The position numbers were made by a program, and so were the translations under genes. Of a stretch of DNA of 64,000 nt, positions 2,510 to 27,963 are shown in pieces. The stretch covers positions 7,116 through 71,115 of the forward strand of contig CACLXJ010000004.1 in NCBI GenBank assembly GCA_902610845.1. Reading direction: 5' to 3'. Source of the stretch: an uncultured Alphaproteobacteria bacterium (GTDB lineage Bacteria > Pseudomonadota > Alphaproteobacteria > HIMB59 > GCA-002718135). The number at the start of each line of letters is the position of its first letter. Position 1 is the first letter of the stretch. Below the pieces are notes generated by a model, which saw nothing but the letters and a program-made list of their open reading frames with translations, made no database searches and was not told the origin of the DNA.

Positions 2510-2511
2510 TA

Positions 2512-5577: not shown

Positions 5578-5665
5578 TTTTCCTCCCTTTGGTTAATAAT
5601 AAAAGGACATTCAATATCTAAGCTACAATGTCAACCAGTTAAATTAACGCAATTTAGTAGTAATA

Positions 5666-7663: not shown

Positions 7664-9490
7664 CTACCCTTTTACAGCTCCAGCCGATAATCCTGCAATA
7701 TAATATTTTTGTACAAAAGAAAAAATTACTATAATTGGAATTGTTGTTAAAGTTGCAAAAGCCATAGCTTGTCCATACTGTGGTTCCTGACCTACACTTA
7801 GTGCAAATACTTCCGTCATTCCTAGGGGAATGGTATAGTTAAGATCATCTCTTAAAATTATAAGTGGCCATAGGAAACTATTCCAAGAATTAACAAATGT
7901 AATTATTGCAAGAGTAGCAATACCTGGCCAAACAAGTGGAACAACTATTTGCCAAAATATTCTAAATTCACCAGCTCCATCCGATCTTGCTGCTTGAATT
8001 AATTCATCAGGAACTGATGTTATGAATTGTCTCATCATAAAAATTCCTATAGCAGGTGCAACAAAAGGAATTATTAGCCCCGTTAGAGTATCATTCAATC
8101 CCATTCTTCCAACTAAGACGTAAAGCGGGATCATTATAATTGGGAAAGGTATCATTGCTGTTGCTACCATAAATATGAAGAGTTTGTTCTTTCCTTTAAA
8201 GTTATATTTAGCAAATGCATACCCAGCTAAAGTACATAAAAAAATCGTTAGAAGTGTTACAGCTATTGCAACAAAGAAGGAATTGAATATCCATAAACTT
8301 GCTGGAAACTCAGTAAACAATTTTGTTACATTTTCCCAATTAGGACTTTTAGAAAAAACTATTGGTGGCCATGCCATTATTTCTGCTGTTGATTTAATTG
8401 ATGAGGTAAGCATAAAAAAGTAAGGAATTAGTGTTATCAAACCTATAATTGTTATTATTAAATTTAATGAATATTTTCCAATTGTTGGCGATAAGGATTT
8501 TTTGCTAGAACTAGAAGACTCAATTGGAAAAATATTAGCAATAAAATCTATAATAGGAGATAAAATTCTCTCAATAAAACTTTTTTTAGCATCCTGATCT
8601 AAATTTGACGCAAATGATCTAAATTGAAATAATGATATAGCTAAAATACAGATGAACATAAATACACCAATAGAAGATCCAAAACCTAATTTGAGCTGAT
8701 TAAAGCCTCTTTCCATCATGTAAACAACCATTGATTTAGCATGGGTTGGAACATCATTTCCACTATACATAACAAATACATCTTCAAATATTTGAAATGA
8801 ACCAATAGAAACAATTATACAAACAAATAATGTTACAGGTGCTAGCTGAGGAAGAGTTACATACCAGAATTGATGCCATGCTGTTGCTCCATCTATTTTT
8901 GCAGCTTCATATAATGTTCTATCTATAAATTGTAGTCCAGCTAAAAAATAAATACAGGTTAAGCCTGTCCATCTCCATATAATTAACATCATAACAGACC
9001 ACTTAGAAGTTGAAGATGATTCAACCCAATTGATTGGCTCAATTCCAATAAGGCCAATCATATAATTTAAGAGCCCAAATTCACTGTTTAGTATCATCTT
9101 AAATGTTAAGGCCGCTGCTACGACTGATGTAACTATAGGTGAGAAAAATACTAGTCGCCAAAAAGGTTTTAGTTTTAAACTATGACTATTAAGAGCAAGA
9201 GCTAATAAAAGTGCAAGAGGAATGGTTATAAATACACTTCCAGCAGAATAAAATACTGTGTTTAGGAAAGTTTCCCAAAAGTTTTGGTCTTTAAAAAATA
9301 AATATTCAAAATTTCCCCACCCCCGAGGTTTAGGAGCTTTAACACCTTTCCATTTATAAAAAGCTAAAATAAAAGAAGCTATGGTAGGTAAAAGAAAAAA
9401 AATTGTAAAAATAATATAAAATGGCGATATAAAAAAATAAGGCGCAACCTTTTCAGGTCTTAATCTTCGACTATTACTCACAACTGACAT
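7664..9490 (-). CDS. Fused double carbohydrate ABC permease (MalF-like + MalG-like in one polypeptide)
   Basis: 608 aa with two EAA motifs (LYEAAKIDGA, LIQAARSDGA) separated by a Ser/Lys-rich linker. Confidence 0.9.
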   Translation of the reverse strand: MSVVSNSRRLRPEKVAPYFFISPFYIIFTIFFLLPTIASFILAFYKWKGVKAPKPRGWGNFEYLFFKDQNFWETFLNTVFYSAGSVFITIPLALLLALALNSHSLKLKPFWRLVFFSPIVTSVVAAALTFKMILNSEFGLLNYMIGLIGIEPINWVESSSTSKWSVMMLIIWRWTGLTCIYFLAGLQFIDRTLYEAAKIDGATAWHQFWYVTLPQLAPVTLFVCIIVSIGSFQIFEDVFVMYSGNDVPTHAKSMVVYMMERGFNQLKLGFGSSIGVFMFICILAISLFQFRSFASNLDQDAKKSFIERILSPIIDFIANIFPIESSSSSKKSLSPTIGKYSLNLIITIIGLITLIPYFFMLTSSIKSTAEIMAWPPIVFSKSPNWENVTKLFTEFPASLWIFNSFFVAIAVTLLTIFLCTLAGYAFAKYNFKGKNKLFIFMVATAMIPFPIIMIPLYVLVGRMGLNDTLTGLIIPFVAPAIGIFMMRQFITSVPDELIQAARSDGAGEFRIFWQIVVPLVWPGIATLAIITFVNSWNSFLWPLIILRDDLNYTIPLGMTEVFALSVGQEPQYGQAMAFATLTTIPIIVIFSFVQKYYIAGLSAGAVKG

Positions 9491-9516
9491 ATTACTATTT
9501 TTATTCTATTTTTAAA

Positions 9517-9540
9517 AAAGCAGGGTAAAAACCCTGCTTT
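9517..9540 (-). terminator. Intercistronic stem-loop after binding-protein gene
   Basis: Perfect 10-bp inverted repeat AAAGCAGGGT-aaaa-ACCCTGCTTT, followed by a U-rich tract on the minus strand. Confidence 0.75.
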
Positions 9541-9553
9541 AAAAAATTATCGT

Positions 9554-10807
9554 CTATAAAAAGTCAAGTTCATCCTGAACTTGTGAAATAAACCTTTCAT
9601 GAGCTTCTTCAGCAGTTATTTCACCATTTGCAAGTAACGTAGTTAAGTCACGAGAAACAGAGTCAATAATTGCTCTTCCAACATGTTGATAGTCATCAGC
9701 ACTTGAACCAGCTACTGAAATGAATGGTTCAGCAAATTTTTGACCTCCATAAAAATCAAACTTTTTGTCAGCAATTCTAGAATCCTCTAGAGCTGATAAT
9801 AAAGTAGGCATACCTCCAAAGAAATCATACTTTGCAATTTGACCTTCATAAGAAAAATATGCAAGTTCAAGAAGTTTTTTTGCTACATCAACTGCTTCTG
9901 AAGATTTATGAATGGCAAAACCAGTTCCACCCCAGTGAAAAGTTTTATAACCCTCATCTCCCCAAGTAGGAAGTGGAGCAACTCTCCATTCACCCGCTTG
10001 TGTATCTCTCACAGTAGGTTGTAAGCAGCAATTATTGTACCAATCAGGTGCCATTGTTCCAACTGTTTGTTTAGAATTATATAAAACACCAGGAGTTTGA
10101 CCCCAATAATCAGTTGTATAATTTATTACACCACTCGCAAAAGCTTCTTCTTGGTATTTTAAAATGTCCATGAAAAGATCTTCATTCATTTCGAATTCGC
10201 CATCTTCATTAAAGAATTTACCACCAGCTTGTTGGTACATACCAATAAATCTTAATTCAGAAAGCATCATTGAAATACCATCTTTAGCTAAGATCTTTCC
10301 TGTTTCCATAAACTCATCCCAAGTTTTAGGAACTGATTTACCATAACTTTCAAGAATACTTGGGTTATAGTAATAAACCATATAACAACCTTCACTCTCG
10401 ATACCGTAGATTTCACCATTGGTATGAGTCCAAGCAGCTACCTTACCAGGATTCCATTGAGACATATCTCCGTACATATCAGTTAATGGTACAAAATTAT
10501 CTGAAATGATATCATCAACCATAAACAATCCGAAACCACTTATTTCTATTCCAAGTAGATCTGTATGTTCAGAACCTGAAGCTATAGCTGTTAAACTATT
10601 TGTCGCCATGTCAGGAGTAACTTGAAAGTCAAAAGTTATGTTATCATCTGGAAATGCCGCCTGCACTTCTTCTAAGTAAGTATTAAAATAATCAACGTAG
10701 AGTTGGTTATGAGTCCACATTGATAAAGTTACATCTCTAGCATTAGAAGCCGATGAAAAACCAACTAAAACTGCGAGAGATAAAATTAAGGATTTAATTA
10801 ATTTCAT
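9554..10807 (-). CDS. Sugar ABC transporter substrate-binding protein (family 1)
   Basis: Signal peptide, YYYNPSILE, PKTWDEF, WRVAPLP, WGGTGFAI; strong AAAGGGAGG RBS. Confidence 0.88.
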   Translation of the reverse strand: MKLIKSLILSLAVLVGFSSASNARDVTLSMWTHNQLYVDYFNTYLEEVQAAFPDDNITFDFQVTPDMATNSLTAIASGSEHTDLLGIEISGFGLFMVDDIISDNFVPLTDMYGDMSQWNPGKVAAWTHTNGEIYGIESEGCYMVYYYNPSILESYGKSVPKTWDEFMETGKILAKDGISMMLSELRFIGMYQQAGGKFFNEDGEFEMNEDLFMDILKYQEEAFASGVINYTTDYWGQTPGVLYNSKQTVGTMAPDWYNNCCLQPTVRDTQAGEWRVAPLPTWGDEGYKTFHWGGTGFAIHKSSEAVDVAKKLLELAYFSYEGQIAKYDFFGGMPTLLSALEDSRIADKKFDFYGGQKFAEPFISVAGSSADDYQHVGRAIIDSVSRDLTTLLANGEITAEEAHERFISQVQDELDFL

Positions 10808-10898
10808 CTTTTCCTCCCTTTAATATGTCTTATAGAAGTTATATTGGTAAAAAAATCAAGATAAAAAAGCTTATTTAACTATTAAATTTAGTTGATTT

Positions 10899-11726
10899 TT
10901 AATTATTTGGTGAAAGAACTTTTTCGTGAGGCATTACTATTTTTTTTTGAAATTCAGTAAGATTTGATAGTAATTTTTTTGAAGGTCTATACGGGTGTCT
11001 GAAAAAACCCCAAGAAGGTCCATATCTGTAAACAACAATTCTTCTTTCTCCCTTATTTGTTCTTTTTGCAGACCCATGACAGAGTGAATCAACAAATAAT
11101 AGTCCATCACCAGCTTTTAAATAAATTTCCTTTGAAGCAGTCATATTATCAGCAGATGTAACTTTGCCTTTTTTCATAGAATGTTTTTCAAATTCGGGAT
11201 GACGTATATTTGATTTATGAGATGAAGGTATAATTACAGTACCGCCATCACCAGGACCAATATCTTTTAACGCTAATAAGATATTTACTTGACCACAATG
11301 AAACTTTCCTTCTTGAAATCTATAATGATTTCTTTGAAGAGCTTCGTGATGGCCAGAGTGAATGCCAATAGCTTCCCCCGGTCCTCTTATGTTAGCAAAA
11401 TTTTCATCAATAAATAAAGGACCGTGATGTTGATCAAAAGTATCTTTGCCTCCAACAAAATGAAGCATATGATTAATCCAAGATGGATGATCAATTAATT
11501 TTTCGAATGGCTTACCTGCTTCGTAAATTTGCTGAAGATTAAGACCCTCTTTTCCACCATAGTTGTGACCATGAACATGTCCTGCCCATTCATCATTTTT
11601 TACATTTTTTAATTTATCTAAAATATTATTAAGATTTTTTAACTCTTTTTTATTTAAAGCATTTTCAATTACTAAGTATCCATTTAGATCAAATAAATAT
11701 TCATCAAGCTTAGAAATTTTTTTCAC
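10899..11726 (-). CDS. PhyH-family Fe(II)/2-oxoglutarate enzyme with H-S-G motif (candidate radical halogenase), copy A
   Basis: YLFDLNGYLVIENAL, DGGTVIIPSSH, AGDGLLF, distal H217 (LCHGS), ERR. Proximal motif is H123-S-G, not H-x-D. GTG start. Confidence 0.8.
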   Translation of the reverse strand: MKKISKLDEYLFDLNGYLVIENALNKKELKNLNNILDKLKNVKNDEWAGHVHGHNYGGKEGLNLQQIYEAGKPFEKLIDHPSWINHMLHFVGGKDTFDQHHGPLFIDENFANIRGPGEAIGIHSGHHEALQRNHYRFQEGKFHCGQVNILLALKDIGPGDGGTVIIPSSHKSNIRHPEFEKHSMKKGKVTSADNMTASKEIYLKAGDGLLFVDSLCHGSAKRTNKGERRIVVYRYGPSWGFFRHPYRPSKKLLSNLTEFQKKIVMPHEKVLSPNN

Positions 11727-11771
11727 AATTATATTTTGAAGTAAAAATTAATTCTTTTCAAGAATAAAAGT

Positions 11772-12836
11772 CTAATTTATGACTGCTTTAAACTCTCCAG
11801 TTTTATATCTTGTAGCCATTTCTCCTAAAGTTATGGAATTAATAGCGGAGGCATTCCCTGCTGTTCCAAATTCTTGTAATCTACTTTTTACAACTTCTTT
11901 CATAGCATCTTTTGAAAGTAATAAATATTTTCGTGGATCAAACTGAGAAGGATTCTCATGAAAATATTTTCTTACTGCAGCTGTGGCTGCTAATCGTAAA
12001 TCTGTATCAACATTAACTTTTCTAACACCATGCTTAATACCTTCTTGAATCTCTGAAACAGGTACACCATATGTTTCTTTTATTTTTCCACCGTATTCAT
12101 TAATAGTTTTTATTAAGTCTTGTGGTACAGAAGATGATCCATGCATAACTAAGTGGGTATTTGGAAGTCTTGAATGTATTTCTTTAATTCTATCGATTGC
12201 TAAAATATCACCTGTAGGTGGTCTAGAAAATTTATATGCACCATGACTTGTTCCTATAGCAATTGCTAGAGCATCAACATTTGTTGCTTTAACAAAGTCT
12301 GAAGCTTCATTTGGATCCGTTAACAATTGATCATGATCAAGCTTACCTTCTGCTCCAACACCATCTTCTTTTTCACCAGTCCCAGTTTCTAAAGAGCCTA
12401 AACATCCAATTTCACCTTCTACAGAAACTCCCAATGCGTGTGCCATATCAGTAGTTTCTTTAGTAACTCTAACATTATAATCAAAATCTGAAGGTGTTTT
12501 TTGATCATCCAATAAAGAACCATCCATCATCACAGAAGTAAAACCAAGATCGATACAATTTTTACAATCTGATGGAGAACCACCATGATCTTGATGTAAA
12601 ACAGTTGGAATGTCTGAAAACTCGTCCATTGCTGCTTCAACTAATTTTTTAACAAAAATTGGTCCAGCATATTTTCTGGCAGCACCAGACGCTTGCAGAA
12701 TAACAGGACTATTTAATTCTTTAGCCCCTTCCATTATTGCTCTGATTGCTTCTAAGTTATTAACGTTAAATGCAGGTACACCATAATTATTTTCAGCTGC
12801 ATGATCTAATAGTTGTCGAAGTGAGATTAATGACAT
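11772..12836 (-). CDS. fba: Fructose-bisphosphate aldolase class II (CbbA/Fba type)
   Basis: [46 protein letters not shown]. Start moved to [15 protein letters not shown]. Confidence 0.95.
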
Positions 12837-12881
12837 ATGGGATATCTTCTTAAACATTAAAAAAATTAATTCAACAATACA

Positions 12882-14015
12882 GTGAGAGAAATTTTTAAAT
12901 ATTCAAATTTAATTTTTTTATATGCTTTATCTCATAGTTATCTTGCAACTTGTTTTGCAATAGATCTTAAAATTCAAGGATACGAGGAACGCTATATTGG
13001 ATTATCATTATCTTTGTGGGGAGTTGGTGTAATTTTTGGAGCAATATTACATAATTTAGTTAGAAAAAAATTAAATTTATTTTCTACAATTTTATATGGT
13101 TCAATAATTCAATTAAGTTTTTCTATAATTTTTTTAATTGATCAAAATACTTTTCTAGTAGCTATTATGCAATTTGTCATGGGAATAACAAGTGCAATTA
13201 ATTCTTTAACTTTAGAAACATACATAAGTTCAAAATTTAGAAAATCATCTGGATTTTATATTTCATTGTTTTGGTCATCAGCAGGTTTAGGCGCAATTAC
13301 TGGTAGTCTTATTATTGCTATTAATGGAATAAATAATTTTACATATTATATTGCCGTTATATTTTTCTTTTTACACTTTATTCCAATCTTTTTATTTAGA
13401 TTTTCTATAAAACAAATTAGTATTGAAAATGTCAGCATAAAATTATCCAAAGATGTTCTAAATAAAATTAAATATTTGCTTATGTGTGTTGTTTTATTTG
13501 GTGCATGTGATGCAGGTTTTAGCTCATTATTTCCATCATATTTATTAGAAGAATCATATAGTGATAAACAAGTTGGAAGAATAAATTTTTTAGCTGGATT
13601 AATTGCTTTAGTTTTTTATCCCTTTATGGGTAAGTTAATAGATAATTATAATAAGACTGTTATTTTTAATACTTTTTGTTCTATGAATTTTATTAATTTA
13701 TTTATTCTTTATTTTATCAGTGATTTTTATGTCTATATAATTTGTGTAGCATTTTATTATTACACCATTGGAACAGTTTTCTTAATTACATTTAATATTG
13801 TAGGTAAAAAACTTGAAGGAGGAGTAATAGTTTTTGGAATAGCTGGTCACTATATTAGTGAAAATATTGGAAGTTTTCTTGGTCCAAATTTAATTGGTAA
13901 TATCATTAATATAAATATTAATTATTTTTTTTTAATATTTGTTTTCTTATATTTCTTAATTGTTTTACTGTTCAATTTTAATCAAATTAAAAATGGTGGG
14001 CTCTCAGGGACTTGA
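12882..14015 (+). CDS. Major facilitator superfamily transporter
   Basis: About 12 hydrophobic segments, GKLIDNYNK loop resembling MFS motif [14 protein letters not shown] start; 3' end overlaps the tRNA on the opposite strand. Confidence 0.75.
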
Positions 14016-14070
14016 ACCCCGGACCACCCCGTTATGAGCGGGGCGCTCTAACCAACTGAGCTAAGAGCCC
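13994..14070 (-). tRNA. tRNA with CAU anticodon, most likely tRNA-Ile2 (lysidine-modified); elongator Met not excluded
   Basis: GGGCTCTTAGCTCAGTTGGTTAGAGCGCCCCGCT-CAT-AACGGGGTGGTCCGGGGTTCAAGTCCCTGAGAGCCCACCA folds as a cloverleaf with encoded CCA. The G1-C72 pair argues against initiator tRNA. Confidence 0.9.
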
Positions 14071-14155
14071 TTTTTATGCCCTATACATGTAAATTTGATG
14101 ATTATTAAGCTTTAATTTTATATTGTTATATAGAATTTAATAATATTTAACTTTT

Positions 14156-14989
14156 ATGCAGCATCCTAGTGAATTAGAAAAATATCTTTTTGATCTCAAA
14201 GGATTTATCATAATCAAAAACGCTTTGTCGAAAAAGGAATTAAAAGATTGTAACAAAATAATAGATAAAATTAAAAGTACACCTTCAGATCAATGGAAGG
14301 GAAATGTGCATAGTAAAGGAAATATAGATCAGCATGGAGTTGAACTTCAACAAATTTACGAAGCTGGTAAACCTTTTGAAAAATTAATTGATCACTCTTC
14401 ATGGATAAATCATATGAAACACTTTGTGGGCGGAGAAGGAACATTTGATTATAATCATGGACCATTATTTATCGATGAAAACTTCGTAAATGTTAGAGGA
14501 CCTGGAAAAGCTATTCCAGTTCATTCTGGTGCTCATGAAGGTACTCAAAGAGGACACTATAGATATCAAAATGGAAAGTTTCATTGTGGTCAAATAAACA
14601 TTTTGGTAGCATTAACTAAAATCAATAAAGGTGATGGAGGAACAGTTATAATTCCTGGATCACATAAGTCTAATTTAAAACATCCTCAATTTGACAAGTA
14701 TAAATTAAAAAAAGATGGAAAGTATAAAACTGCTGATAGCATGATTGGATCAGAAGAGGTCTATTTAAATGCAGGTGATGCTATATTATTTGTTGATTCT
14801 CTTTGTCATGGATCTTCGAGAAGAATTAATAAAGGAGAAAGAAGAGTTGTTATATATAGATATGGTCCATCTTGGGGCTTCTTCAGGAATAACTACAGGC
14901 CTTCAAAAGAATTATTAAATAGACTAACTAAACTTCAAAGAAATATTGTAATGCCTCATGAAAAGGTAATGTCTCCAGAAATAAATTAA
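14156..14989 (+). CDS. PhyH-family Fe(II)/2-oxoglutarate enzyme with H-S-G motif (candidate radical halogenase), copy B
   Basis: Paralog of 10899-11726 (about two-thirds identical by manual alignment). H123-S-G, distal H218 (LCHGS), ERR. Confidence 0.8.
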   Translation: MQHPSELEKYLFDLKGFIIIKNALSKKELKDCNKIIDKIKSTPSDQWKGNVHSKGNIDQHGVELQQIYEAGKPFEKLIDHSSWINHMKHFVGGEGTFDYNHGPLFIDENFVNVRGPGKAIPVHSGAHEGTQRGHYRYQNGKFHCGQINILVALTKINKGDGGTVIIPGSHKSNLKHPQFDKYKLKKDGKYKTADSMIGSEEVYLNAGDAILFVDSLCHGSSRRINKGERRVVIYRYGPSWGFFRNNYRPSKELLNRLTKLQRNIVMPHEKVMSPEIN

Positions 14990-16512
14990 AGGGACGCAAA
15001 TTCTAAATAGTCGTTGTGTTTAATAAAATCTTTCATTTGATCATCATATTGATCATTGAAACGTTTGTATTCATCTCTGGCAAAAGGTTTTAGATTAAAA
15101 TTATTCATTTCTTCTCTTGCAATATCTTTTTTAAGCAAACCAAGTCCATCTAAAACAGGATAGTATAATTGTGACTGAACATGTGGTAGCCCTGATAGAT
15201 ATAAATCAAAATCACTCATCCTAGGTAGTTGGTTGTTCCATTTATTAATTAATTTTAAGGTATCTTCATGGATGCATTCATTTTTTATAAATTTCCAAAA
15301 ATCACTATCCTCCCTATTTGAAATATAATGTGTATTCAGAAATATCATGAAGTCATCAAATTGATGTCCTACTCTTTCATTAAATTCATCAATTACCTTT
15401 TCATTATTAAAATCCATTTCTTCTTTAAGATAATCGGTTGCAAATAAGATCATTTGTATCAGAGTACTATGGATTGAAGTAGCTTCTAATGGTTCAAGGA
15501 AGCCAGAGGCTAATCCAATGGCAATACAATTTTTTACCCATGATTTTTCTATTCTTCCAGAAGTAAATTTTATGTCATTTCTCGGTTCAATTTCGTGTCC
15601 TAAAACTTTCTCTATTTCAATTTTAGCTTCTTCAGGACTAGTAAAATCATCACAATATACATAACCCGCACCAATTCTTTCTTGAGTTGGTATTTGCCAC
15701 ATCCAACCATTTTTTTGTGCCCAAGCTAAAGTATAATTACTAATATTTTTTTCATCTAATTTTAAAAAAAAAGGCATAGCTCTATTTACTGGTAAATTTT
15801 TTTGATAAGATTTCCAACCAACATTAAATATTTTATTTATAAGAAGTTTTCTGAAGCCTGTACAATCAAAGACTAAATCTGTTTCAATTTCTTTTCCACT
15901 TTTAAAATGAAGTTTTTCAATTTCTCCGTTTTGATTTAATGATGCATGAGTATAAACTTCATCTAGAATTTCTATATTTTTAGATCTTTTTCTTAAATAG
16001 TTTCCAACAAGATTATTATCAAAATGATAAGCATAGAAAAAAGGACTCTTTAAATCTGGTCTATTGTTTTCAAAATTAAAGGGAACTTTATTTTTTTCCA
16101 TTAGTTTTGTATGCAAGTGTACATCAGCAACTGATCTACCCGCAGCAACAGCATAAACATTTAAATATTCAAAATCTTCGGGAACTTTTTTAGAGGCTAA
16201 TAAGTGTGGGTCATCAATAGGTCCATAATATTGATGATTTAGTTCTTTCCAGTCTTTATGAACAATTCCAAATTTTAAGGTTGCTTTTGTTTCTTTTAGA
16301 AAGTCTAATTCATCTAAGTTATATCTTTTTAAAAAATCATAAAATATACCTGTTGTCCCTTCTCCTACACCAATTATCGGAATACTAGAAGGATCAACAA
16401 TGGTTACTTTTATATCTTGTTTGTTTGTATAAAAAAAATCACTAAGAATATATGCAGAAATCCAACCGGCAGTTCCCGCACCAAGAATAGTAACATTTTT
16501 TATTTTTCTCAT
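14986..16512 (-). CDS. Flavin-dependent halogenase (tryptophan halogenase family)
   Basis: GAGTAG FAD motif, IGVGEGT, catalytic Lys K80 in ATLKFGI..DW, AYHFD, WMWQIP (WxWxIP), FLEPLEATSI. Confidence 0.9.
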   Translation of the reverse strand: MRKIKNVTILGAGTAGWISAYILSDFFYTNKQDIKVTIVDPSSIPIIGVGEGTTGIFYDFLKRYNLDELDFLKETKATLKFGIVHKDWKELNHQYYGPIDDPHLLASKKVPEDFEYLNVYAVAAGRSVADVHLHTKLMEKNKVPFNFENNRPDLKSPFFYAYHFDNNLVGNYLRKRSKNIEILDEVYTHASLNQNGEIEKLHFKSGKEIETDLVFDCTGFRKLLINKIFNVGWKSYQKNLPVNRAMPFFLKLDEKNISNYTLAWAQKNGWMWQIPTQERIGAGYVYCDDFTSPEEAKIEIEKVLGHEIEPRNDIKFTSGRIEKSWVKNCIAIGLASGFLEPLEATSIHSTLIQMILFATDYLKEEMDFNNEKVIDEFNERVGHQFDDFMIFLNTHYISNREDSDFWKFIKNECIHEDTLKLINKWNNQLPRMSDFDLYLSGLPHVQSQLYYPVLDGLGLLKKDIAREEMNNFNLKPFARDEYKRFNDQYDDQMKDFIKHNDYLEFASL

Positions 16513-19237: not shown

Positions 19238-19242
19238 AATAT

Positions 19243-20241: not shown

Positions 20242-20253
20242 ATTTTTTTATAA

Positions 20254-20280
20254 TGTAAGGGGCTATGTTAGCCCCTTACA
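20254..20280 (-). terminator. Intercistronic stem-loop after binding-protein gene
   Basis: Perfect 12-bp inverted repeat TGTAAGGGGCTA-tgt-TAGCCCCTTACA. Confidence 0.75.
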
Positions 20281-20290
20281 AAAAGATTTA

Positions 20291-22345
20291 TTAATCAATA
20301 CCAGGAACTCTTCCTGGGAATAATTCATCCAATTGATCATATTGATAAACCCAGAATTGTTCACGGATAACTGTATCTTCAGCCCATTGATAAGCGAGAA
20401 CAGGCATTCCATCAGCTAAATTTTGAATTCTTTTATTTATCAAAAGAGCTGTTGGGTACTGAACTATACCAGGTTGATAGACATTTTCAGTGAATAATTT
20501 CTGATATTGAGACATCAATTGTTTTGCTTCATCTCCTTCAACACCGTCTCTCCATCTTTCAAGAATTTGAACTATTTCTTGTTCAAATGATTGTAATTGT
20601 TGAGGGTGTTCATCAGTTCCTAGATGAGGAGTAAAAGATGAAGTTGTTATAGGGCCTAGTTCTTCCCAATAACCTGAGTTTGGAAAAGCATACTCCTGTT
20701 GAGCTCTGCTAATTATCCAATCATACTCACCTGATTGTCTTGTTGGTTCTGTGTCTTCCATTGGTTTAACATTTACTTTAATTCCAACTTCAGACATCAT
20801 AGTTGCAAGACCATCACCAATTAGTTTCTCGTTTTCACTATCCTTATTTTGCGTCAAATTAATAACAAGATCTCCGCCTCCGTTAGGAAGGTTTCGAACA
20901 CCATTACCATCAGTGTCTGCAAGTCCTAAACCATCTAGTAGAGCATTTGCCCCTCCAGGATTATAAGGAAAAAATGATGTAGCTTCAGGATCAAAGAAGG
21001 CGCTATCTCTTGCCATACCACCAGCATAAACAGTAGCAAAAGGCCCTTTTGACATAGCATTCGCAAATGCTTTACCATCTATTGCGTGCTGAATAGCTTT
21101 TCTAAAATCCAAATTTCTATTTAGATCTCGAATAGCAGCCATCTGATCATCTAACACACCTACACCAATCGCTTGATTCATATAAAGATGATATCCCATA
21201 GTTCTTCCACTAAATGAAAGTCCTGCTTGCGCGTCTTCACTCTTAGATTCTTTAACAGCTTCTAAGTATAGAGGAACATTCTCCATATTTGAGAAGTCAG
21301 CGTTACCAGCTAAGGTATCAACTGTTCTTTGGCCCCATGTTTTTAACTGGAACACCATCTCGTTCATATACGGAAGCTGTTGTCCTTTACTATCTACTTT
21401 CCAATAATATGGATTTCGACGAAGTATAACGACTTCATCTTGTTTATATTCGACTGCTGTCCAAGCTCCCATACTTACCCAAGGTAATCGTCCAGCTGGA
21501 AACGCAGCTACATAATCATCATAAGATGTACCATCATACTTAGGGTGATGCTCTTTAAGTAAGTGTGAAGGTCCAGGGCATCCGTTTATATATGCCATAG
21601 AGTGCAAATTAAGTTTTGGTTCATTTTGTGGAAACGTCCACTTAATTTGAGTTGGGCTTAATATTTCTAAAGTTGTGCCTGCACCCATAGTAGTAGCATT
21701 CATTCTTGTTGGAACATTCTCATCGAGAACATTGTCTTCCCACCAAAAACGAACATCTTCAGAATCAAAAGGATCTCCATCAGACCATTTAGCACCATCA
21801 ATAAGATTCATTGTTAACGAATTTCCATCCCATTCCCAATCAGTTGCTAGGTTTGGTAAAGGATAAGAGTCTTCGGCTTTTAGTCTTACCATTGGACCAT
21901 TTCTTGTTAAACATTCTTGAACTGTGTAATTAATTCCACCCCATCCTTGATGTTGTGAAGCTGTCCAGTTCCATCCTTCTGGTCTTCCTCCAATAGTATG
22001 TCTAAAAGTTCCTCCATAGCGACCAATACCATCTGGCATTGCATCTCCATTAAAAACTAAAGGTTTTTTTGGCAAACGTTCCCATATTGGGGGGAGTTTT
22101 CCTTCTTGAACAAGAGCGCTTATATAGTCTGGTTCATATAGAAATTCAAAGTCTCCAATATCTTGATAGCTCATCAATTCATCTCGTCCGACAAATTGAA
22201 CTTCTTGCATATTTTCAATTGCAGGTGCTGACGGAAGTGCTGTGGCACCCTCCGGTCTAGCAGATACATTTGTACTAGTTAATGCAAAAGTAGCAGAAGC
22301 TACGCTAGCAAGTAATGTGGATCTAAATTTATTTTTTTTCATCAT
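20291..22345 (-). CDS. agpA: Family 5 ABC substrate-binding protein, alpha-galactoside-binding AgpA/MelB-like
   Basis: GKLPPIWERLPKKP, GGRPEGWNW..QGWGGI, RRNPYYWKVD..GQQLPY resemble rhizobial AgpA. Adjacent to a GH4 gene; GGAGG RBS. Confidence 0.82.
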   Translation of the reverse strand: MMKKNKFRSTLLASVASATFALTSTNVSARPEGATALPSAPAIENMQEVQFVGRDELMSYQDIGDFEFLYEPDYISALVQEGKLPPIWERLPKKPLVFNGDAMPDGIGRYGGTFRHTIGGRPEGWNWTASQHQGWGGINYTVQECLTRNGPMVRLKAEDSYPLPNLATDWEWDGNSLTMNLIDGAKWSDGDPFDSEDVRFWWEDNVLDENVPTRMNATTMGAGTTLEILSPTQIKWTFPQNEPKLNLHSMAYINGCPGPSHLLKEHHPKYDGTSYDDYVAAFPAGRLPWVSMGAWTAVEYKQDEVVILRRNPYYWKVDSKGQQLPYMNEMVFQLKTWGQRTVDTLAGNADFSNMENVPLYLEAVKESKSEDAQAGLSFSGRTMGYHLYMNQAIGVGVLDDQMAAIRDLNRNLDFRKAIQHAIDGKAFANAMSKGPFATVYAGGMARDSAFFDPEATSFFPYNPGGANALLDGLGLADTDGNGVRNLPNGGGDLVINLTQNKDSENEKLIGDGLATMMSEVGIKVNVKPMEDTEPTRQSGEYDWIISRAQQEYAFPNSGYWEELGPITTSSFTPHLGTDEHPQQLQSFEQEIVQILERWRDGVEGDEAKQLMSQYQKLFTENVYQPGIVQYPTALLINKRIQNLADGMPVLAYQWAEDTVIREQFWVYQYDQLDELFPGRVPGID

Positions 22346-22421
22346 TCCTCCACTTAAAATTTAATAAAACCTATAATATTATCTTAATAATGAGAAGTAT
22401 TATTTAAGTTTAGAATTAGTA

Positions 22422-23885
22422 TTATAAATTAAAAGCATCTTTTTCGACTAAAATAGACCTTTTTTCTCTTTTTATTTTTGTTTTTATCGAAATTCCTTTC
22501 ACGGATTTATTGTATTTATAGTTTTTAATTTTTTTTAGATTCCTTTTAATACTATTAATTTTTGATTTAAATTGCGGAAGCCATTTTTCTTGAGCGAGAA
22601 GCATTTCGTCAACCATTTGCCAAACTTCTTCTGGTGAGCATACTGAGCTTACTAAAGGATCTTGAAGTACAGCAAGTTTTAATAATTCAACATCGCCATT
22701 GACTGCAGCTTTAACAGCCATTCTTTGTACGTCAATGGATGTACTACACAATGATGCGCATTGAAGTGGTAATTTTATTCCTTTAATCATCTCCAAACCT
22801 TTACTGCTGACATAGCCAGTACTTTCAATCACACAATCTTCGTCTAGATTGGAAATAGTTTTATTGTTAATAACATTAAAATGTCCCCTATATTTTTTTC
22901 CAGTTTCAATTGCTTCAATTATATAACTTCCATGTTCAGACGATCTTTTATAATCATTGAGATTGATTCCAGATTTTTTTAAATACTTAGGATAATCTTC
23001 TACAAACCAATTTCTTTTTTCATTGCATACTCTTAAGTAACCACCTGTTTCACCGTGTATCCAATTTGAAAGGCTAATCCATTTTTTTACGTCATTTTGA
23101 GTACGTCTATACCATGGCAAGTATTCACTTAAATGACCGTTACTCTCAGTGGAGAAATATCCGAACTTATCTAAAACATCTATCCTAACTTTTTCATCTC
23201 TTGAAAATTTTTTATGTTTCTTTAACGATTTAGAAAGCTGTTCTTTTGTAATTTTTTTTCCTTTGTACTTTAAATCCAAATACCACGTCATGTGATTTAT
23301 TCCACTGCAAGAATATTGCAATTTATTAAATGGAATGTTTAATGAATCTTCTATTAATTTTGCACCAGCTTGAACTCCATGGCAAAGGCCGATTGTGTTG
23401 ACTTTACCAATTTCATTTGCTGCCCAGGTATTCATAGCCATAGGATTTGCATAATTTAAAAATAGTGCATTTTTTTTGGCATATTTTTTTATATCTTTAC
23501 AAAAATCTAAGATAACAGGAAGATTACGCTGCCCGTACATTATGCCGCCGGCACAAATAGTGTCTCCCACACATTGATCGATACCAAATTTTAATGGAAT
23601 TGATATGTCTGTTTCAAATGCTTCCAATCCCCCCACCCTTACACAACTAATGATATATTTTGCATTCCTTATTGATTCTTTTCTAACAGGTTCAATGCTG
23701 AGTTTAGTTGGAAGATTATTAGCTTTAATGTCTTTTTGAATTAATTCCGCTACCATCAACAAGTTGCTTCTAGATATATCATGAAGAGAAATTTCTATAT
23801 TTTGAAGTTTTTTAACTTTTAATATATCTCGAACTAGGGTTTGAGTAAAACCAACACTACCGGCGCCAAGAAATGATATTTTCAT
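22422..23885 (-). CDS. GH4 NAD+/Mn-dependent alpha-galactosidase, rhizobial AgaL/MelA type (CHGV motif)
   Basis: GAGSVGFT, DQCVGDTICAGG, LNYANPMAM, GLCHGVQ, STESNGHLSEYLPWY. Confidence 0.88.
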   Translation of the reverse strand: MKISFLGAGSVGFTQTLVRDILKVKKLQNIEISLHDISRSNLLMVAELIQKDIKANNLPTKLSIEPVRKESIRNAKYIISCVRVGGLEAFETDISIPLKFGIDQCVGDTICAGGIMYGQRNLPVILDFCKDIKKYAKKNALFLNYANPMAMNTWAANEIGKVNTIGLCHGVQAGAKLIEDSLNIPFNKLQYSCSGINHMTWYLDLKYKGKKITKEQLSKSLKKHKKFSRDEKVRIDVLDKFGYFSTESNGHLSEYLPWYRRTQNDVKKWISLSNWIHGETGGYLRVCNEKRNWFVEDYPKYLKKSGINLNDYKRSSEHGSYIIEAIETGKKYRGHFNVINNKTISNLDEDCVIESTGYVSSKGLEMIKGIKLPLQCASLCSTSIDVQRMAVKAAVNGDVELLKLAVLQDPLVSSVCSPEEVWQMVDEMLLAQEKWLPQFKSKINSIKRNLKKIKNYKYNKSVKGISIKTKIKREKRSILVEKDAFNL

Positions 23886-23913
23886 ATGTTTATTTCTAAA
23901 CTTCTTAATTTAT

Positions 23914-23942
23914 TTGACAATATTATTATTTATTTCTAACAT
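23914..23942 (+). promoter_or_regulatory. Putative sigma-70 promoter for the PhyH-mocD-melA-panB-like operon
   Basis: TTGACA-N17-TAACAT ending 9 nt before ATG 23952. Confidence 0.55.
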
Positions 23943-23951
23943 AAAAATTAT

Positions 23952-24683
23952 ATGTCAGATTTTACAGAGTTTTTAGAGAATGGGTATATTCTAAAAAGAA
24001 ATCTTTTTTCCCAAGATGAAATATCAAAACTAATTAAATTTATTGAAGAAAATTCTGAGAAAGAAAAGAATGCTAGAGAAACTTTTAGTTCCTCAGGTAA
24101 GCTTAATATGACGTTATGGAATCATCCATCTGAAGATTTATTTGGAAAATTTTCTACCAATGAAAGAATAGTTAAGCCTATGGAAGAATTTCTTGGAGAT
24201 GAGGTCTATCACTATCACTCAAAAGTAATTTGGAAAAAACCTGGTGATGGAGGGTTTGATTGGCATCAAGATTATGGATACTGGTATCATAATGCCTGTC
24301 TGTACCCCGACATGGGGTCTTGCTTTATAATGCTAGACAAGGCTACAAAAGAAAATGGATGTCTGAAAGTTTTAAAAGGATCACAAAAAGTTGGAAGAAT
24401 TGGTCATGGCGTTTCTGATACTCCTGAACAAACAGCTGACTTGGATAGGATACGCGAATTAGAAAAAAGACATGAGTGTATCCATATTGAAGCTAATCCA
24501 GGTGACGCACTTTTTTTTCATGCAAATCTTTTACATTCCTCTGATGCAAATAAATCAAATGAATCAAGAAGAACATTAATTGTTTGTTTTAATACTAAGT
24601 CTAATAATCCATATAAAGAAAACAGTCATGCAAGTTACTCACCATTAAAAATTTCTTCATATAATTCGATTATGGAATATTAA
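23952..24683 (+). CDS. PhyH-family Fe(II)/2OG dioxygenase with canonical triad (ectoine/proline-hydroxylase-like)
   Basis: WHQDYGYW (H-x-D), ENGCLKVLKGS, PGDALFFH..LLHSS, SRR. Confidence 0.88.
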   Translation: MSDFTEFLENGYILKRNLFSQDEISKLIKFIEENSEKEKNARETFSSSGKLNMTLWNHPSEDLFGKFSTNERIVKPMEEFLGDEVYHYHSKVIWKKPGDGGFDWHQDYGYWYHNACLYPDMGSCFIMLDKATKENGCLKVLKGSQKVGRIGHGVSDTPEQTADLDRIRELEKRHECIHIEANPGDALFFHANLLHSSDANKSNESRRTLIVCFNTKSNNPYKENSHASYSPLKISSYNSIMEY

Positions 24684-24752
24684 CAAAATGAAGCTTAAAA
24701 TATTTTATAATAATATTTTAAAAAAATGATTTATACTTACTGAATTAGAATT

Positions 24753-25745
24753 ATGCATATAAATTCTTCCACATGGTATATTCCTAAGATTGAAAAGAAA
24801 AAACTCAAAGAACTTTCAAAAAGAAATGATGGACCAGGTTTGATTCATTTTTTTATATATTTTTCATCACTTATATTTTTTGGTTATCTTTCGTATTTTT
24901 ATTTTGGTAGTATTTTGTTTTACTTTTTCTTTTTTATTTATTCTACAATCTATACATTTGCTATTTCTAATCTTCATGAAACAATTCATCGTACAGCTTT
25001 TAAAACTCGCTGGATTAATGAAGTTTTTTTGTACATATCATCTTTTCAGCTGCATAGTGAACCAGTTGTCTTTAGATGGAGTCATACATTTCATCACTCA
25101 AATACATTGCAGACAGAAGGCGAATATGATCATGAAATTGAAGTTTCAAGACCTACAGACCTATTAAAATTTTTTTTAAAATTTATTCCTCTTTCAGATA
25201 TATTTTTTATTCACCAATCTTCTTTTGTTGGAACAATTAAATCATCTTTAGGAATTATGAGTCCTGCTATAAAAATCAGTGCTCCTAAAGATCAACAAAG
25301 AAAAATAATAAGTAATGCAAGAATAATAATAGGTATTTGGGCTATAATTATTTCAATTTCTATTTATATTAATAACTTGTGGCCAATAATATTTTATTTT
25401 TTACCAACTTTTGTTGGAAGACCTGTTCATTATGCTGTTAATGTAACGCAACACTTAGCTGCAAAAATTGACACCAAAGATCATAGATTAAGTACACATA
25501 CAATCATCTTAAATCCAATATTAAGTTTTTATTATTGGCATATGGAATATCATACAGAGCATCATATGTTTCCAATGGTGCCTTCTTATAATCTGAAAAA
25601 ATTAAGAAATGAAATCAAAGATTCATTGCCTATTCCATTTTATGGTCTTTTTGATTTTTATAAAAAAGTATTACCGTCCTTAATTAAACTAGCATTTGAT
25701 TTAAATGGATATTATAAAGTCAAATTACCTTATGATCAGAATTAA
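24753..25745 (+). CDS. Fatty-acid-desaturase-fold membrane di-iron oxygenase, MocD-like
   Basis: His boxes HETIH, HTFHH, HTEHH; N-terminal WY..I.KKKLKEL..R.D.P and HRTAFKTRW segments resemble rhizopine-catabolism MocD. Confidence 0.78.
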   Translation: MHINSSTWYIPKIEKKKLKELSKRNDGPGLIHFFIYFSSLIFFGYLSYFYFGSILFYFFFFIYSTIYTFAISNLHETIHRTAFKTRWINEVFLYISSFQLHSEPVVFRWSHTFHHSNTLQTEGEYDHEIEVSRPTDLLKFFLKFIPLSDIFFIHQSSFVGTIKSSLGIMSPAIKISAPKDQQRKIISNARIIIGIWAIIISISIYINNLWPIIFYFLPTFVGRPVHYAVNVTQHLAAKIDTKDHRLSTHTIILNPILSFYYWHMEYHTEHHMFPMVPSYNLKKLRNEIKDSLPIPFYGLFDFYKKVLPSLIKLAFDLNGYYKVKLPYDQN

Positions 25746-25774
25746 TAAAAATATAAAAAAAACAGAGATACAAA

Positions 25775-27136
25775 ATGACTAAGTTAACAATAATTGGCGC
25801 AGGAAGTGCAGTATTTACTAAGAATATTTTTACAGATTTAATGTTTATTGATGATTTTAAAAAAATGGACATTGCACTGGTAGACATTGATGAAAAAAGA
25901 TTAAAAATATCCCATGAGTTACTAGATGTAATTGCAAAAAAGTTGGATGCTTCTCCTAATATAAAATCATATACAAATAGAAAAGAAGCTTTAGCAGGTT
26001 CTGATTTTGTACAATCAACTATACAAGTAGGCGGTTACAAACCCTCTACAGTTATAGATTTTGATATTCCAAATCAATTTGGTTTAAAACAAACAATTGC
26101 TGATACCCTTGGCATTGGAGGAATTATGCGAGGGCTTAGAACAATTCCTGTGTTAGTAGATATTGGTAAAGACATAATGGATCTTTGTCCAAATTCTTTG
26201 TGGTTACAATATGTAAATCCAATGTGTTCAAATATGATAGCGATAAATAACGCATGTCCTGGAATTAATTCTATAGGACTATGTCATTCAGTGCAAGGAA
26301 CTGCAGAAATGCTTGCTAGAGATTTAAATGAAAAAATTGAAGATATTGATTATCTATGTGCTGGGATTAATCATATGGCTTTTTATAAAAAGTTTACAAA
26401 AAAAAATGGCAATGGTGGAGAGGATCTTTATCCAAGATTGAAAAAGTTAGCTGATGATATTGTTAGAGATAAAATAACATCTACTAGAAGTATAGGTAGG
26501 GATAGTGAATCAGATAAAGTTCTACATGAAAAAGTAAGATACGAAATTTTAAGACGATTTGGTTATTTTGTTACAGAGTCTAGTGAACATTTTGCTGAGT
26601 ATGTTCCATGGTTCATTAAACAAAACAGACAAGATTTAATTGATCAATATAAAATTCCAATTGAAGAGTATATTGATAGGTGTGAAAATAACATCAAATT
26701 ATGGGACGATTTAGAGAAAGATATGACACCTATTCATAATCAACCTCTAAAAAGAGGAAAGGAATATGCATCATTCATTATGGATGCTGTAGCAAATAAT
26801 AATGAAGTAACTATTAACGGTAATGTAATGAATGATGGATATATAGATAATTTACCATCAAATTGTTGTGTTGAAGTTCCATGTTTAATTAATTCAAATG
26901 GTAATCAACCTCAAAAGACCGGTCGCTTACCTGAACATTTAGCAGCTTTAATGAGAACAAATATAAATGTTCAAATATTGACTGCAGAAGCGGCATTAAC
27001 AAATAAAAAAGAGCATATTTATCATGCTGCAATGCTGGATCCACTAACTGGAGCAAATTTATCTATTGATGAAATATATTCTATGGTTGATAAATTAATT
27101 GATGCACACGGTAATTACTTACCCAAATATCATTAA
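25775..27136 (+). CDS. melA: GH4 alpha-galactosidase, E. coli MelA type (CHSV motif)
   Basis: IGAGSAVF, QTIADTLGIGGIMRGLRTIP, YVNPM, GLCHSVQGT, VTESSEHFAEYVPWF. Confidence 0.9.
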   Translation: MTKLTIIGAGSAVFTKNIFTDLMFIDDFKKMDIALVDIDEKRLKISHELLDVIAKKLDASPNIKSYTNRKEALAGSDFVQSTIQVGGYKPSTVIDFDIPNQFGLKQTIADTLGIGGIMRGLRTIPVLVDIGKDIMDLCPNSLWLQYVNPMCSNMIAINNACPGINSIGLCHSVQGTAEMLARDLNEKIEDIDYLCAGINHMAFYKKFTKKNGNGGEDLYPRLKKLADDIVRDKITSTRSIGRDSESDKVLHEKVRYEILRRFGYFVTESSEHFAEYVPWFIKQNRQDLIDQYKIPIEEYIDRCENNIKLWDDLEKDMTPIHNQPLKRGKEYASFIMDAVANNNEVTINGNVMNDGYIDNLPSNCCVEVPCLINSNGNQPQKTGRLPEHLAALMRTNINVQILTAEAALTNKKEHIYHAAMLDPLTGANLSIDEIYSMVDKLIDAHGNYLPKYH

Positions 27137-27963
27137 TGTCTAAACTTACAGTTAAAGATTTATTTGACAAAAAAGGAAAAGTTAAATTAACAGAACTATA
27201 TGTGACAAATGCTTTAGAGGCATATGCAGCTGAACAGGCTGGAATAGATATTCAAATTGTTTCATTCAAAAAAGATACTCTAAGAACAGGTGTACCAACA
27301 AACAAATGGTTTAGAGACGCTCATATTAAAGATATTCGTGATGCAGCACCAAATACATTTATGATTTATGGCCTTGGTCAACTATCTTCACCAGAAAAAG
27401 CAATTGATGCCGCACTTATAGCAAGGGAAAATGGTGCTGATGCGGTTTATTGCGGTAATAGTCCAAAATATATAGAAGCTCTTCGTAATGAAGGTTTACC
27501 AGCAGTCAGCCATATTGGTTTAATTCCATATAAAAGTACATGGACAGGTGGTTTCAAAGCAGTTGGAAAAGATGCACAATCTGCTTATAGGGTTTATCAA
27601 GATGCTTTAGCATATGACCAAGCGGGAGCTATAGGTCTAGAAGTAGAATGTGTTCCTGATAGAGTTGCAGAAATAATTACGAATAAAGTTAATTTATTGA
27701 CGTTATCCATGGGGAGTGGTCCTAAATGTGATGTTGAGTTTTTATTTATTCAAGATGTTATTGGAACAAATACAGATAGAGTACCTCGTCATGCTAGAGT
27801 TTTTAAAGATACAAATAAATCTTACGAAAAGCTTGTTGATGATACTATAGAAGGACTTACAAATTTTATTAAAGACGTAAATACTAAAAAATTTCCAACT
27901 CTGTCAAATATTGTTAAAATAAAAGATGAAGAGTTCGAAAAATTTTTAGATAAAGTTGGCTAG
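27136..27963 (+). CDS. Divergent PanB-fold (ketopantoate hydroxymethyltransferase-like) protein of uncertain activity
   Basis: Keeps SHIGLIP, GGFKAVGK, LEVECVP, MGSGPKCD; lacks the canonical GDS, DMPF and KxEG motifs. Confidence 0.75.
   Translation: MSKLTVKDLFDKKGKVKLTELYVTNALEAYAAEQAGIDIQIVSFKKDTLRTGVPTNKWFRDAHIKDIRDAAPNTFMIYGLGQLSSPEKAIDAALIARENGADAVYCGNSPKYIEALRNEGLPAVSHIGLIPYKSTWTGGFKAVGKDAQSAYRVYQDALAYDQAGAIGLEVECVPDRVAEIITNKVNLLTLSMGSGPKCDVEFLFIQDVIGTNTDRVPRHARVFKDTNKSYEKLVDDTIEGLTNFIKDVNTKKFPTLSNIVKIKDEEFEKFLDKVG

Follow-up and report, generated by a model that had tools for sequence, protein, structure and literature searches.

The question raised by the locus described here is whether a set of halogenase-like and oxygenase genes, found among genes for alpha-galactoside uptake and cleavage, constitutes a single system. 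A first-pass annotation had proposed that it does, with two unrelated halogenase families acting on the products of imported algal glycosides. The genes occupy positions 7,664 to 27,963 of a 64,000 nucleotide stretch of contig CACLXJ010000004.1, referred to below as the window, which has a G+C content of approximately 30% and comes from an assembly of 1.08 Mb that is 59% complete. We consider it likely that this 20 kb, in a Pelagibacterales (SAR11-type) genome, serves sugar utilisation and varies between strains, being made up of separable modules around a tRNA-Met gene and containing HygX-type oxygenases and an orphan halogenase homologue. Almost identical proteins are assigned in public sources to Pelagibacteraceae, which indicates a genome of that type. 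The region adjoins rpoD-dnaG.

Open reading frame (ORF) calling together with Pfam and NCBIfam scans recovers every gene of the first-pass annotation at the coordinates given there. The features that concern us most, with the names used below, are listed here; GH4 denotes glycoside hydrolase family 4, ABC an ATP-binding cassette transporter, and Fe(II)/2OG an Fe(II)/2-oxoglutarate enzyme.

10899-11726, minus strand: PhyH_A, predicted HygX-type Fe(II)/2OG oxygenase (PF05721; best solved match HygX)
11772-12857, minus strand: class II fructose-bisphosphate (FBP) aldolase (TIGR01521, 589.5 bits against a cut-off of 496)
12882-14015, plus strand: major facilitator superfamily (MFS) transporter, a variable gene (PF07690)
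13994-14070, minus strand: tRNA-Met (CAT) (ARAGORN, Rfam)
14156-14989, plus strand: PhyH_B, second predicted HygX-type oxygenase (PhyH family), convergent with the halogenase homologue
14986-16512, minus strand: Trp_halogenase, the flavin-dependent halogenase homologue (PF04820, 8.8e-99), last gene of the ABC operon
16512-18134, minus strand: fused Opp-type ATPase (Pfam, NCBIfam)
18134-19327 and 19243-20241, minus strand: Opp/Dpp-type (family 5) permeases (Pfam, NCBIfam)
20291-22345, minus strand: SBP_bac_5 binding protein (SBP5), 684 aa (Pfam, NCBIfam)
22422-23885, minus strand: GH4_a, alpha-galactosidase-type glycosidase (PRK15076, 536 bits against a cut-off of 486), first gene of the importer operon
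23952-24683, plus strand: PhyH_C, canonical HxD Fe(II)/2OG hydroxylase (PF05721, 6.7e-34), divergent from GH4_a
24753-25745, plus strand: MocD-like membrane di-iron oxygenase of the FA_desaturase family (PF00487, 3.9e-27)
25775-27136, plus strand: GH4_b, alpha-galactosidase-type glycosidase (PRK15076, 593 bits against a cut-off of 486)
27136-27963, plus strand: PanB-like protein (PF02548, 1.4e-38)

Family memberships, motifs, synteny and the pattern of presence and absence among relatives are direct observations, and they provide the basis for our description of the region. The modules vary independently among the 36 relatives of the same genus that we compared, most of them genomes 55-89% complete. 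The 20 kb is therefore a mosaic of separable modules around tRNA-Met and not one inherited unit, and the proposal of a single island falls. The halogenase homologue is found in 10 of these relatives and in none of 24 genomes of the neighbouring genus, while GH4_b orthologues (at least 71% identity) are more widely distributed (25 of 36). The tRNA-Met gene is present in 11 of the 12 relatives' loci scanned, where it bounds the variable slots, and in halogenase-less genomes it directly adjoins GH4_b. Three relatives (G007, G012 and G035) show the order aldolase, a different CUT1-type ABC importer, tRNA-Met, GH4_b, with no halogenase, Opp genes, GH4_a or PhyH_C at this site. PhyH_C is present in SAR11-type loci that have the importer module and was not found in three halogenase-less loci (L117, L119 and L121); its motif is H-Q-D and its closest solved structures are small-molecule hydroxylases (7dt0, GriE, EctD). 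The MFS gene, whose reading frame enters the tRNA-Met gene by 22 bases in the window, occurs in relatives either as an 84-98% identical form or as a 47% form. The FBP aldolase, which had been counted as part of the system, is found at 78-99% identity in every examined locus that reaches its position, with or without the halogenase, and is a housekeeping gene. A search for att-like repeats of the tRNA-Met end gave only short AT-rich chance matches in 13900-26000, and family scans found no integrase in the window. These comparisons indicate that, at one site flanked by a tRNA gene, importer modules are exchanged as wholes among SAR11-type genomes.

The module at 14986-23885 is, by homology, the marine counterpart of the rhizobial Agp/Mel alpha-galactoside system, and the alpha-galactoside core of the first-pass annotation is upheld. 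Both GH4_a and GH4_b exceed the NCBIfam cut-off for alpha-galactosidase (PRK15076, 486 bits); the cofactors of GH4 enzymes are NAD+ and Mn2+. Genes on Sinorhizobium/Ensifer megaplasmids match SBP5 with 43-44% identity across 99% of its length. One of these loci, on Ensifer canadensis pT173d, has the order AraC-GH4-SBP5-permease-permease-ATPase-GH4 and lacks a halogenase; identity to it is 44% for SBP5 (which matches the gene at the AgpA position), 51% for the ATPase and 49-51% for the permeases, with GH4_a 57% identical to its first GH4 and GH4_b 48% to its second. We take this order to be the rhizobial Agp/Mel arrangement, known in S. meliloti as agpT-melA-agpABCD. As in that system, the window has a GH4 alpha-galactosidase, a family-5 binding protein and an Opp-type ABC transporter in one operon, and the imported substrate is predicted to be an alpha-galactoside.

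We also compared positions 7970-27963 with contigs from RNA libraries (four seawater runs from three studies), a comparison that cannot rank genes and may include DNA. The two binding-protein genes and the aldolase gene are each matched in part, almost identically, by contigs from the four runs, although contigs are no measure of expression level. The highest summed depth falls on the genes at 9554-10807 and 20291-22345 and on the aldolase, which we give as description only, and the halogenase gene is almost uncovered, which is uninformative about its expression.

The two PhyH proteins with an HxG motif had been regarded as halogenase-like, and here a different assignment is indicated. PhyH_A and PhyH_B are 66% identical and both have H-S-G where PhyH enzymes show HxD, so that each shows the part of the Fe(II)/2OG halogenase signature in which HxG/A replaces HxD/E. 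However, that signature also involves the lack of a carboxylate on the iron, and in the alignment of 19 diverse family members drawn from a 50%-identity library a replacement acid is conserved. The metal motif of PhyH_A reads H123-S-G125 ... D213-x3-H217; all 19 members share H123, G125 and H217, and 18 of them have an acid four residues ahead of H217 (10 with Asp, 8 with Glu), the remaining one having Ser. Nor are the nearest characterised relatives halogenases of the SyrB2, CytC3, WelO5 or BesD type: the closest solved structures to both proteins are HygX entries (4xc9, 4xcb), and the 19-member profile matches HygX over 234 positions, full length, at E 7.6e-29, as compared with 2.5e-17 for EctD, 1.4e-5 for CytC3 and 1.3e-4 for SyrB2. 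In the profile alignment HSG falls on HGG of HygX and D/E-x3-H on its E-x3-H, thus reproducing along a full-length alignment the arrangement H-x-G ... acid-x3-H. According to the review PMC13374393, the iron site of HygX has the form H-X-G ... E-X3-H, its acid having been relocated, and the enzyme acts on a sugar. The conserved D/E-x3-H and the match to HygX lead us to assign PhyH_A and PhyH_B, from their sequences, to the HygX-type oxygenases and not to the halogenases. The rule that HxG means halogenase fails for this family, and a false lead is removed. Remoter members of the PhyH_A family lie in nucleotide-sugar biosynthesis clusters or beside ThuA/GFO genes, neighbourhoods that are consistent with sugar substrates. 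The family is very common in marine metagenomes, where at least 120 clusters, all at least 75% identical to PhyH_A, are listed, several of which contain hundreds of sequences each. A 60% identical homologue in G169 has AraC, sulfotransferase and branched-chain ABC genes as neighbours and offers no clear lead.

The distribution of the two genes differs. PhyH_A-type genes are found in 22 of the 36 genus relatives, comprising 9 of the 10 that hold the halogenase homologue and 13 of the 26 that do not. In L038, L023 and G034 such a gene lies within or beside the cassette. PhyH_B is a recent copy of PhyH_A; such a second copy is seen in 4 of the 36, all four of them halogenase holders, and it is not found in 5 of the 9 relatives' halogenase loci with enough flanking sequence. 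The loci of G027 and G268 and the type-2 loci lack it. The tail-to-tail arrangement in the window, with the stops of PhyH_B and the halogenase homologue converging and overlapping by 4 bases at 14986-14989, is thus exactly as first annotated, but it does not bring together two halogenases.

The flavin-dependent halogenase homologue, which had been called intact, is so in all of its motifs. It matches PF04820 with 331.8 bits (cut-off 21; E 8.8e-99), is matched by solved tryptophan halogenases at E 1e-65 to 1e-35, and its translation contains GAGTAGW, K80, GWMWQIP and FLEPLE. Across 13 members of its clade, with identities down to 46%, all of these motifs are invariant, K80, W270/W272/I274/P275 and E340-E343 among them; the catalytic residues are taken as in the PrnA and RebH literature. 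At the positions where 6nsd and 8fov show H-P-F, which in the PrnA literature are the indole-stacking residues, the homologue has G97-P-I99, and G97 and I99 are invariant in the same 13 members. The invariant G-P-I in place of H-P-F makes tryptophan an unlikely substrate, and the substrate is probably something else. No flavin reductase gene adjoins the halogenase homologue in any locus examined. The window does contain one such gene.

45700-46164, plus strand: Flavin_Reduct, free-standing flavin reductase (Pfam)

This gene lies approximately 29 kb off, in a housekeeping context between genes for a GNAT acetyltransferase and an M23 peptidase, and is the sole match to its family in the assembly. 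It is possible that it supplies FADH2 to the halogenase homologue, notwithstanding the lack of linkage.

What distinguishes the homologue is the company that it keeps. In all nine loci of SAR11-type relatives with enough flanking sequence, GH4_a, SBP5, the two permeases, the fused ATPase and the halogenase homologue remain together, in two gene orders and with identities of 94-95% or 64-66%. A GH4_a-type second hit is found in all ten halogenase holders; among the non-holders G034 alone shows one, cut off by the end of its contig. In a wider synteny scan with one genome per species, 22 loci outside SAR11 carry homologues 38-48% identical to the halogenase; GH4 is adjacent in 20 of them, the two exceptions being contigs of 2.3 and 4.8 kb, and all four ABC genes are present in 16. 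The holders belong to the Hyphomicrobiales and Rhodobacterales (Devosia, Kaistia, Bauldia, Aestuariivirga, Tabrizicola, Marivivens, Histidinibacterium, Rhodobacter and others) and their commonest order is SBP5-permease-permease-ATPase-GH4_b-halogenase-GH4_a. None of 54 loci with homologues at 36% identity or below shows GH4 or ABC neighbours, and tandem paralogues are found there instead. A FastTree tree of 121 sequences places 25 close ones, picked by hit-list rank and independently of their gene neighbours, on one side of a branch with SH-like support of 97. The clade of the halogenase homologue thus lives almost only in the alpha-galactoside cassette. The first-pass annotation had named co-occurrence across genomes as its check, and failure of the halogenase-like genes to co-occur with transporter and GH4 genes elsewhere as grounds for abandoning its model; since the flavin halogenase does co-occur with them, this failure is not seen for that gene.

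Two loci deserve separate mention. A plasmid of Sulfitobacter mediterraneus M342 (NZ_CP081110.1, 22237-43685; L124) carries the order HTH-SBP-permease-permease-ATPase-GH4-halogenase-GH4 (HTH, helix-turn-helix; SBP, substrate-binding protein) with 4-base overlaps, and the cassette is flanked by IS6 and IS3 transposases and would be a handy genetic model. A 3.6-kb contig binned as Prochlorococcus (L053, CAJWWR010000053.1) encodes OppB/C/DF 92-99% identical to those of the window and the first 116 residues of the halogenase at 97%, and is probably a mis-binned SAR11-type contig.

The MocD-like protein has the FA_desaturase fold with His boxes HETIH, HTFHH and HTEHH in its translation, and is 37% identical (E 5e-45) to the gene in the mocD position of a moc-type locus on a Rhizobium leguminosarum plasmid. 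That gene lies between a MocR-type regulator and genes for a Rieske ferredoxin and an FAD oxidoreductase; iolE, GFO/IDH/MocA and SBP genes are nearby, and a gene named 'PanB' followed by purU is downstream. The window's PanB-like protein is 40% identical to this 'PanB' over 270 residues (E 7e-59). R. johnstonii 3841 shows the order desaturase-family gene, 'MocE family' ferredoxin, FAD oxidoreductase, PanB-like. Among the best 60 matches to each of the MocD-like and PanB-like proteins, 24 plasmid accessions are common to both lists, with the genes approximately 2.4 kb apart, and the organism tallies of the two lists run parallel. A second locus of the same-genus relative G268 (L152; G268:C1:467000-482000) has an operon desaturase-reductase-Rieske-PanB-like-desaturase-FA_hydroxylase, which continues with an SMP-30 lactonase and an ILVD/EDD dehydratase and is divergent from a sugar ABC importer, with sugar-acid enzymes beside it. 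At a third G268 locus (L151; G268:C1:531000-547000) two tandem PanB-like genes are divergent from two tandem PhyH genes, and around them are BNR-repeat proteins, an MFS transporter, a class IV aminotransferase and a DHDPS-family gene.

The PanB-like protein belongs to a distinct subfamily and has neither the equivalog score nor the Mg/keto-acid ligands of PanB (EC 2.1.2.11). It scores 107.9 bits against a cut-off of 207.55, under both NCBIfam cut-offs; the equivalents of GDS, D84, K112 and E114 are replaced while those of H136 and E181 are retained; and identity is 37-44% among PanB-like proteins, as against 19-21% to the true PanB of the genome, whose gene (230 bits, on another contig) and panC are found elsewhere. 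The labels 'MocD-like' and 'degenerate PanB' given in the first-pass annotation are therefore sound, by homology and by the replaced ligands. Its idea of demethylation draws indirect support from the recurring pairing of the two genes, which suggests that the oxygenases oxidise methyl groups and that the PanB-like protein handles the one-carbon unit with folate, the step itself being conjectural. MocDEF reportedly acts as an O-demethylase (Bahar et al. 1998). The mocDEF genes are placed in rhizopine catabolism by a passage of PMC10107442. Nothing was found in the literature on the pairing of PanB-like proteins with MocDEF, and PMC9788770, found in a search on pinitol demethylation, contained nothing relevant.

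Taken together, these data suggest a model of three modules. In module 1 (14986-23885, minus strand), the family-5 binding protein and Opp-type ABC transporter would take up an alpha-galactoside, which the GH4 enzymes would split; its extra gene is the member of the flavin-dependent halogenase family, which could draw FADH2 from the free flavin reductase and act on a non-tryptophan substrate. Module 2 (23952-27963, plus strand) consists of GH4_b and its translationally coupled PanB-like partner (the stop of GH4_b and the start of the PanB-like gene overlap by one base, 27136), preceded in the window strain by PhyH_C and the MocD-like gene; the oxygenases and PanB-like protein may strip off methyl groups or comparable decorations and hand the one-carbon unit over to folate. 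Module 3 associates PhyH_A with a CUT1 ABC importer and with GFO and aldo-keto reductase (AKR) oxidoreductases, and PhyH_B with the MFS transporter, and both oxygenases would be expected to hydroxylate or oxidatively tailor sugars and not to halogenate them.

Several observations weigh against this model, or at least against parts of it. The Asp of PhyH_A is shorter than the Glu of HygX, Lys137, which in HygX fills the gap left by Gly, is replaced by Asn in PhyH_A and PhyH_B, and the case for D213 as a metal ligand is one of alignment. PhyH_B copies occur only in halogenase holders, and PhyH_A-type genes lie inside or beside the cassette in L038, L023 and G034, so that the cassette and the HygX-type oxygenases may be functionally tied. 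Genes for the MocE ferredoxin and MocF reductase do not accompany the MocD-like gene, whose flanking gaps of 70 and 30 bases are too short to hold them. At this site it is otherwise found in G268 (96%) and not in L012-L014 or L016-L019, which span the site, and since it is gone from most relatives that keep the PanB-like gene, coupling of the two in this genus is loose. Specificity for alpha-galactosides is read from family scores and from homology to an un-named Ensifer gene rather than to a characterised AgpA sequence. An AraC-type regulator equivalent to AgpT is missing, no regulator family being found among ORFs of at least 100 aa at 1-33154; one is present in the Devosia, Aestuariivirga, Ensifer and Sulfitobacter loci. 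Finally, as most of the relatives are incomplete genomes, absences among them mean 'not found'.

How, then, do other explanations compare? The original proposal, that HxG Fe(II)/2OG and flavin halogenases together modify the aglycone or sugar of imported algal glycosides, with export by the MFS transporter, has in its favour the HxG of the two PhyH proteins, the close linkage of GH4 and ABC genes to a flavin halogenase homologue that is intact, the overlapping convergent stops and the restriction of PhyH_B-type copies to halogenase holders. We nevertheless regard it as extremely unlikely, because the HxG proteins have the conserved D/E-x3-H and match HygX at 8e-29 and halogenases at 1e-4 to 1e-5, PhyH_B and the form of the MFS gene vary independently of the halogenase, and half of the non-holders (13/26) have PhyH_A. 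Nothing points to the export or to the dehalogenation that had also been envisaged, and family scans found no dehalogenase family in the window. The whole region could alternatively serve the catabolism of alpha-galactosyl cyclitols (galactinol-type compounds or O-methyl-inositol galactosides), with GH4 freeing galactose and cyclitol, the MocD-like and Fe(II)/2OG oxygenases and PanB-like protein stripping O-methyl groups, and GFO/IDH/MocA, the IolE-like TIM barrel and AKR beginning oxidation of the cyclitol. The resemblance of the MocD-like protein to a gene from a moc-type locus in which iolE, GFO/IDH/MocA, SBP and PanB-like genes also occur is what this would predict, as is the occurrence in the window, in one run on a single strand, of two GFO/IDH/MocA genes, a xylose-isomerase-like TIM barrel and an AKR; iolD is above cut-off in G018 and G268, with a partial copy in the window's genome. 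That the IolG model gives 96.7 against a cut-off of 355, that the TIM barrel is just 21% identical to Rhizobium iolE, that the IolB/KduI family was not found in the window's genome or in G018, and that the modules vary independently make it, to our minds, quite improbable.

The halogenase homologue itself can be read in more than one way. Conceivably it has ceased to halogenate and works instead as a flavin oxidoreductase, or as a partner that supports the GH4 enzymes structurally. This would fit its place in the non-SAR11 cassettes (flanked on either side by a GH4 gene, with stop codons overlapping starts), the want of a flavin reductase gene alongside it in any locus examined, and the G-P-I (invariant G97 and I99) where two solved tryptophan halogenases show H-P-F. 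We think this unlikely, as 13 clade members, with identities as low as 46%, show no change in the Lys, WxWxIP and FLEPLE motifs, which is hard to explain without hypohalous-acid chemistry, and a flavin reductase gene does exist in the genome. Also quite improbable is the suggestion that the enzyme is a working halogenase and that its natural substrate, derived from a sugar or linked to a galactoside, is among the molecules that the Agp-like importer and GH4 handle. If so, the use of algal or plant alpha-galactosides would involve the making or processing of an organohalogen in some SAR11-type cells and in many Rhodobacterales and Hyphomicrobiales, and very abundant ocean bacteria would be linked to halogen cycling. 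To our knowledge, halogenation chemistry of this kind is known for no carbohydrate pathway. In the literature excerpts retrieved, nothing was found on the halogenase cassette or on halogenases in SAR11 sugar loci.

We therefore return to the modular sugar-utilisation region as the preferred explanation. The first-pass annotation was mostly right in what it observed and partly right in what it made of it, its headline of two halogenase families in one system being wrong. The orphan halogenase clade, tightly bound to alpha-galactoside uptake across three orders of Alphaproteobacteria, has a role that deserves to be tested, and genetics is possible because some of its holders are in culture (Sulfitobacter mediterraneus M342, Devosia, Tabrizicola, Marivivens). 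Two further testable items are the HygX-type oxygenases in sugar catabolism and the PanB look-alike, named PanB in databases, that goes with methyl-oxidising oxygenases.

The remainder of the window provides the setting for these modules. The CUT1 importer genes next to PhyH_A are:

7664-9490, minus strand: fused MalF/MalG-like CUT1 ABC permease (Pfam, NCBIfam)
9554-10807, minus strand: SBP_bac_1 binding protein of the CUT1 importer (Pfam, NCBIfam)

These parts (7664-10807) have no ATPase of their own, and a MalK-type ATPase is encoded at 1436-2509. The latter belongs to a further sugar module upstream (2-7662, minus strand) with GFO/IDH/MocA, a xylose-isomerase-like TIM barrel, the MalK ATPase, two permeases, SBP_bac_1, an aldo-keto reductase and a second GFO/IDH/MocA, for which relatives share 63-96% identity and most examined loci have only some of the genes. 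The rest is housekeeping (rpoD, dnaG, carAB, greA, hisS, prfA, ispG, secA and others). ORFs of 589, 160, 258 and 206 aa (61374-63143 on the minus strand, 55357-56642, 39112-39732) match no Pfam family at E 1e-6 and have housekeeping surroundings. Family scans of every window ORF found no polyketide synthase, nonribosomal peptide synthetase or RiPP (ribosomally synthesised and post-translationally modified peptide) family, in agreement with the earlier statement that no such scaffold gene is present.

It is instructive to set these genes beside the characterised systems that they resemble. Like PanB (PDB 1M3U, 1OY0, 1O66), the PanB-like protein belongs to PF02548 and retains the H136 and E181 equivalents, but it has lost the Mg/keto-acid ligands. 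With MocDEF the window shares an oxygenase of the FA_desaturase family, and a PanB-like gene follows mocDEF in Rhizobium and the MocD/reductase/Rieske set in G268, whereas the window's MocD-like gene stands without a Rieske ferredoxin or reductase alongside. With HygX, the hygromycin B orthoester-forming enzyme (PDB 4XC9, 4XCA, 4XCB, 4ZPI), PhyH_A and PhyH_B have in common the H-x-G and an acid four residues before the distal His, notwithstanding Asp in PhyH_A for Glu in HygX and Asn for its Lys137; HygX functions in antibiotic biosynthesis, while PhyH_A and PhyH_B are found in a catabolic uptake context in which orthoester formation has no support.

The halogenase homologue has the PF04820 match and the GxGxxG, Lys, WxWxIP and FLEPLE motifs of the two-component tryptophan halogenases, the solved enzymes compared being 6nsd, 8fov, 5lv9, 5hy5, PyrH (2wet), PrnA (2apg) and RebH (2e4g), with 6frl, 6y1w and 2pyx as orphan relatives. 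It differs from them in having neither a biosynthetic cluster nor an adjacent reductase, and in forming a clade of its own that is tied to the alpha-galactoside cassette. That cassette has the families and gene order of the Ensifer Agp/Mel locus, from which the window departs by the lack of an AraC regulator, by the addition of the flavin halogenase homologue, and by the separation of GH4_b, which is now on the opposite strand in the company of the PhyH_C, MocD-like and PanB-like genes.

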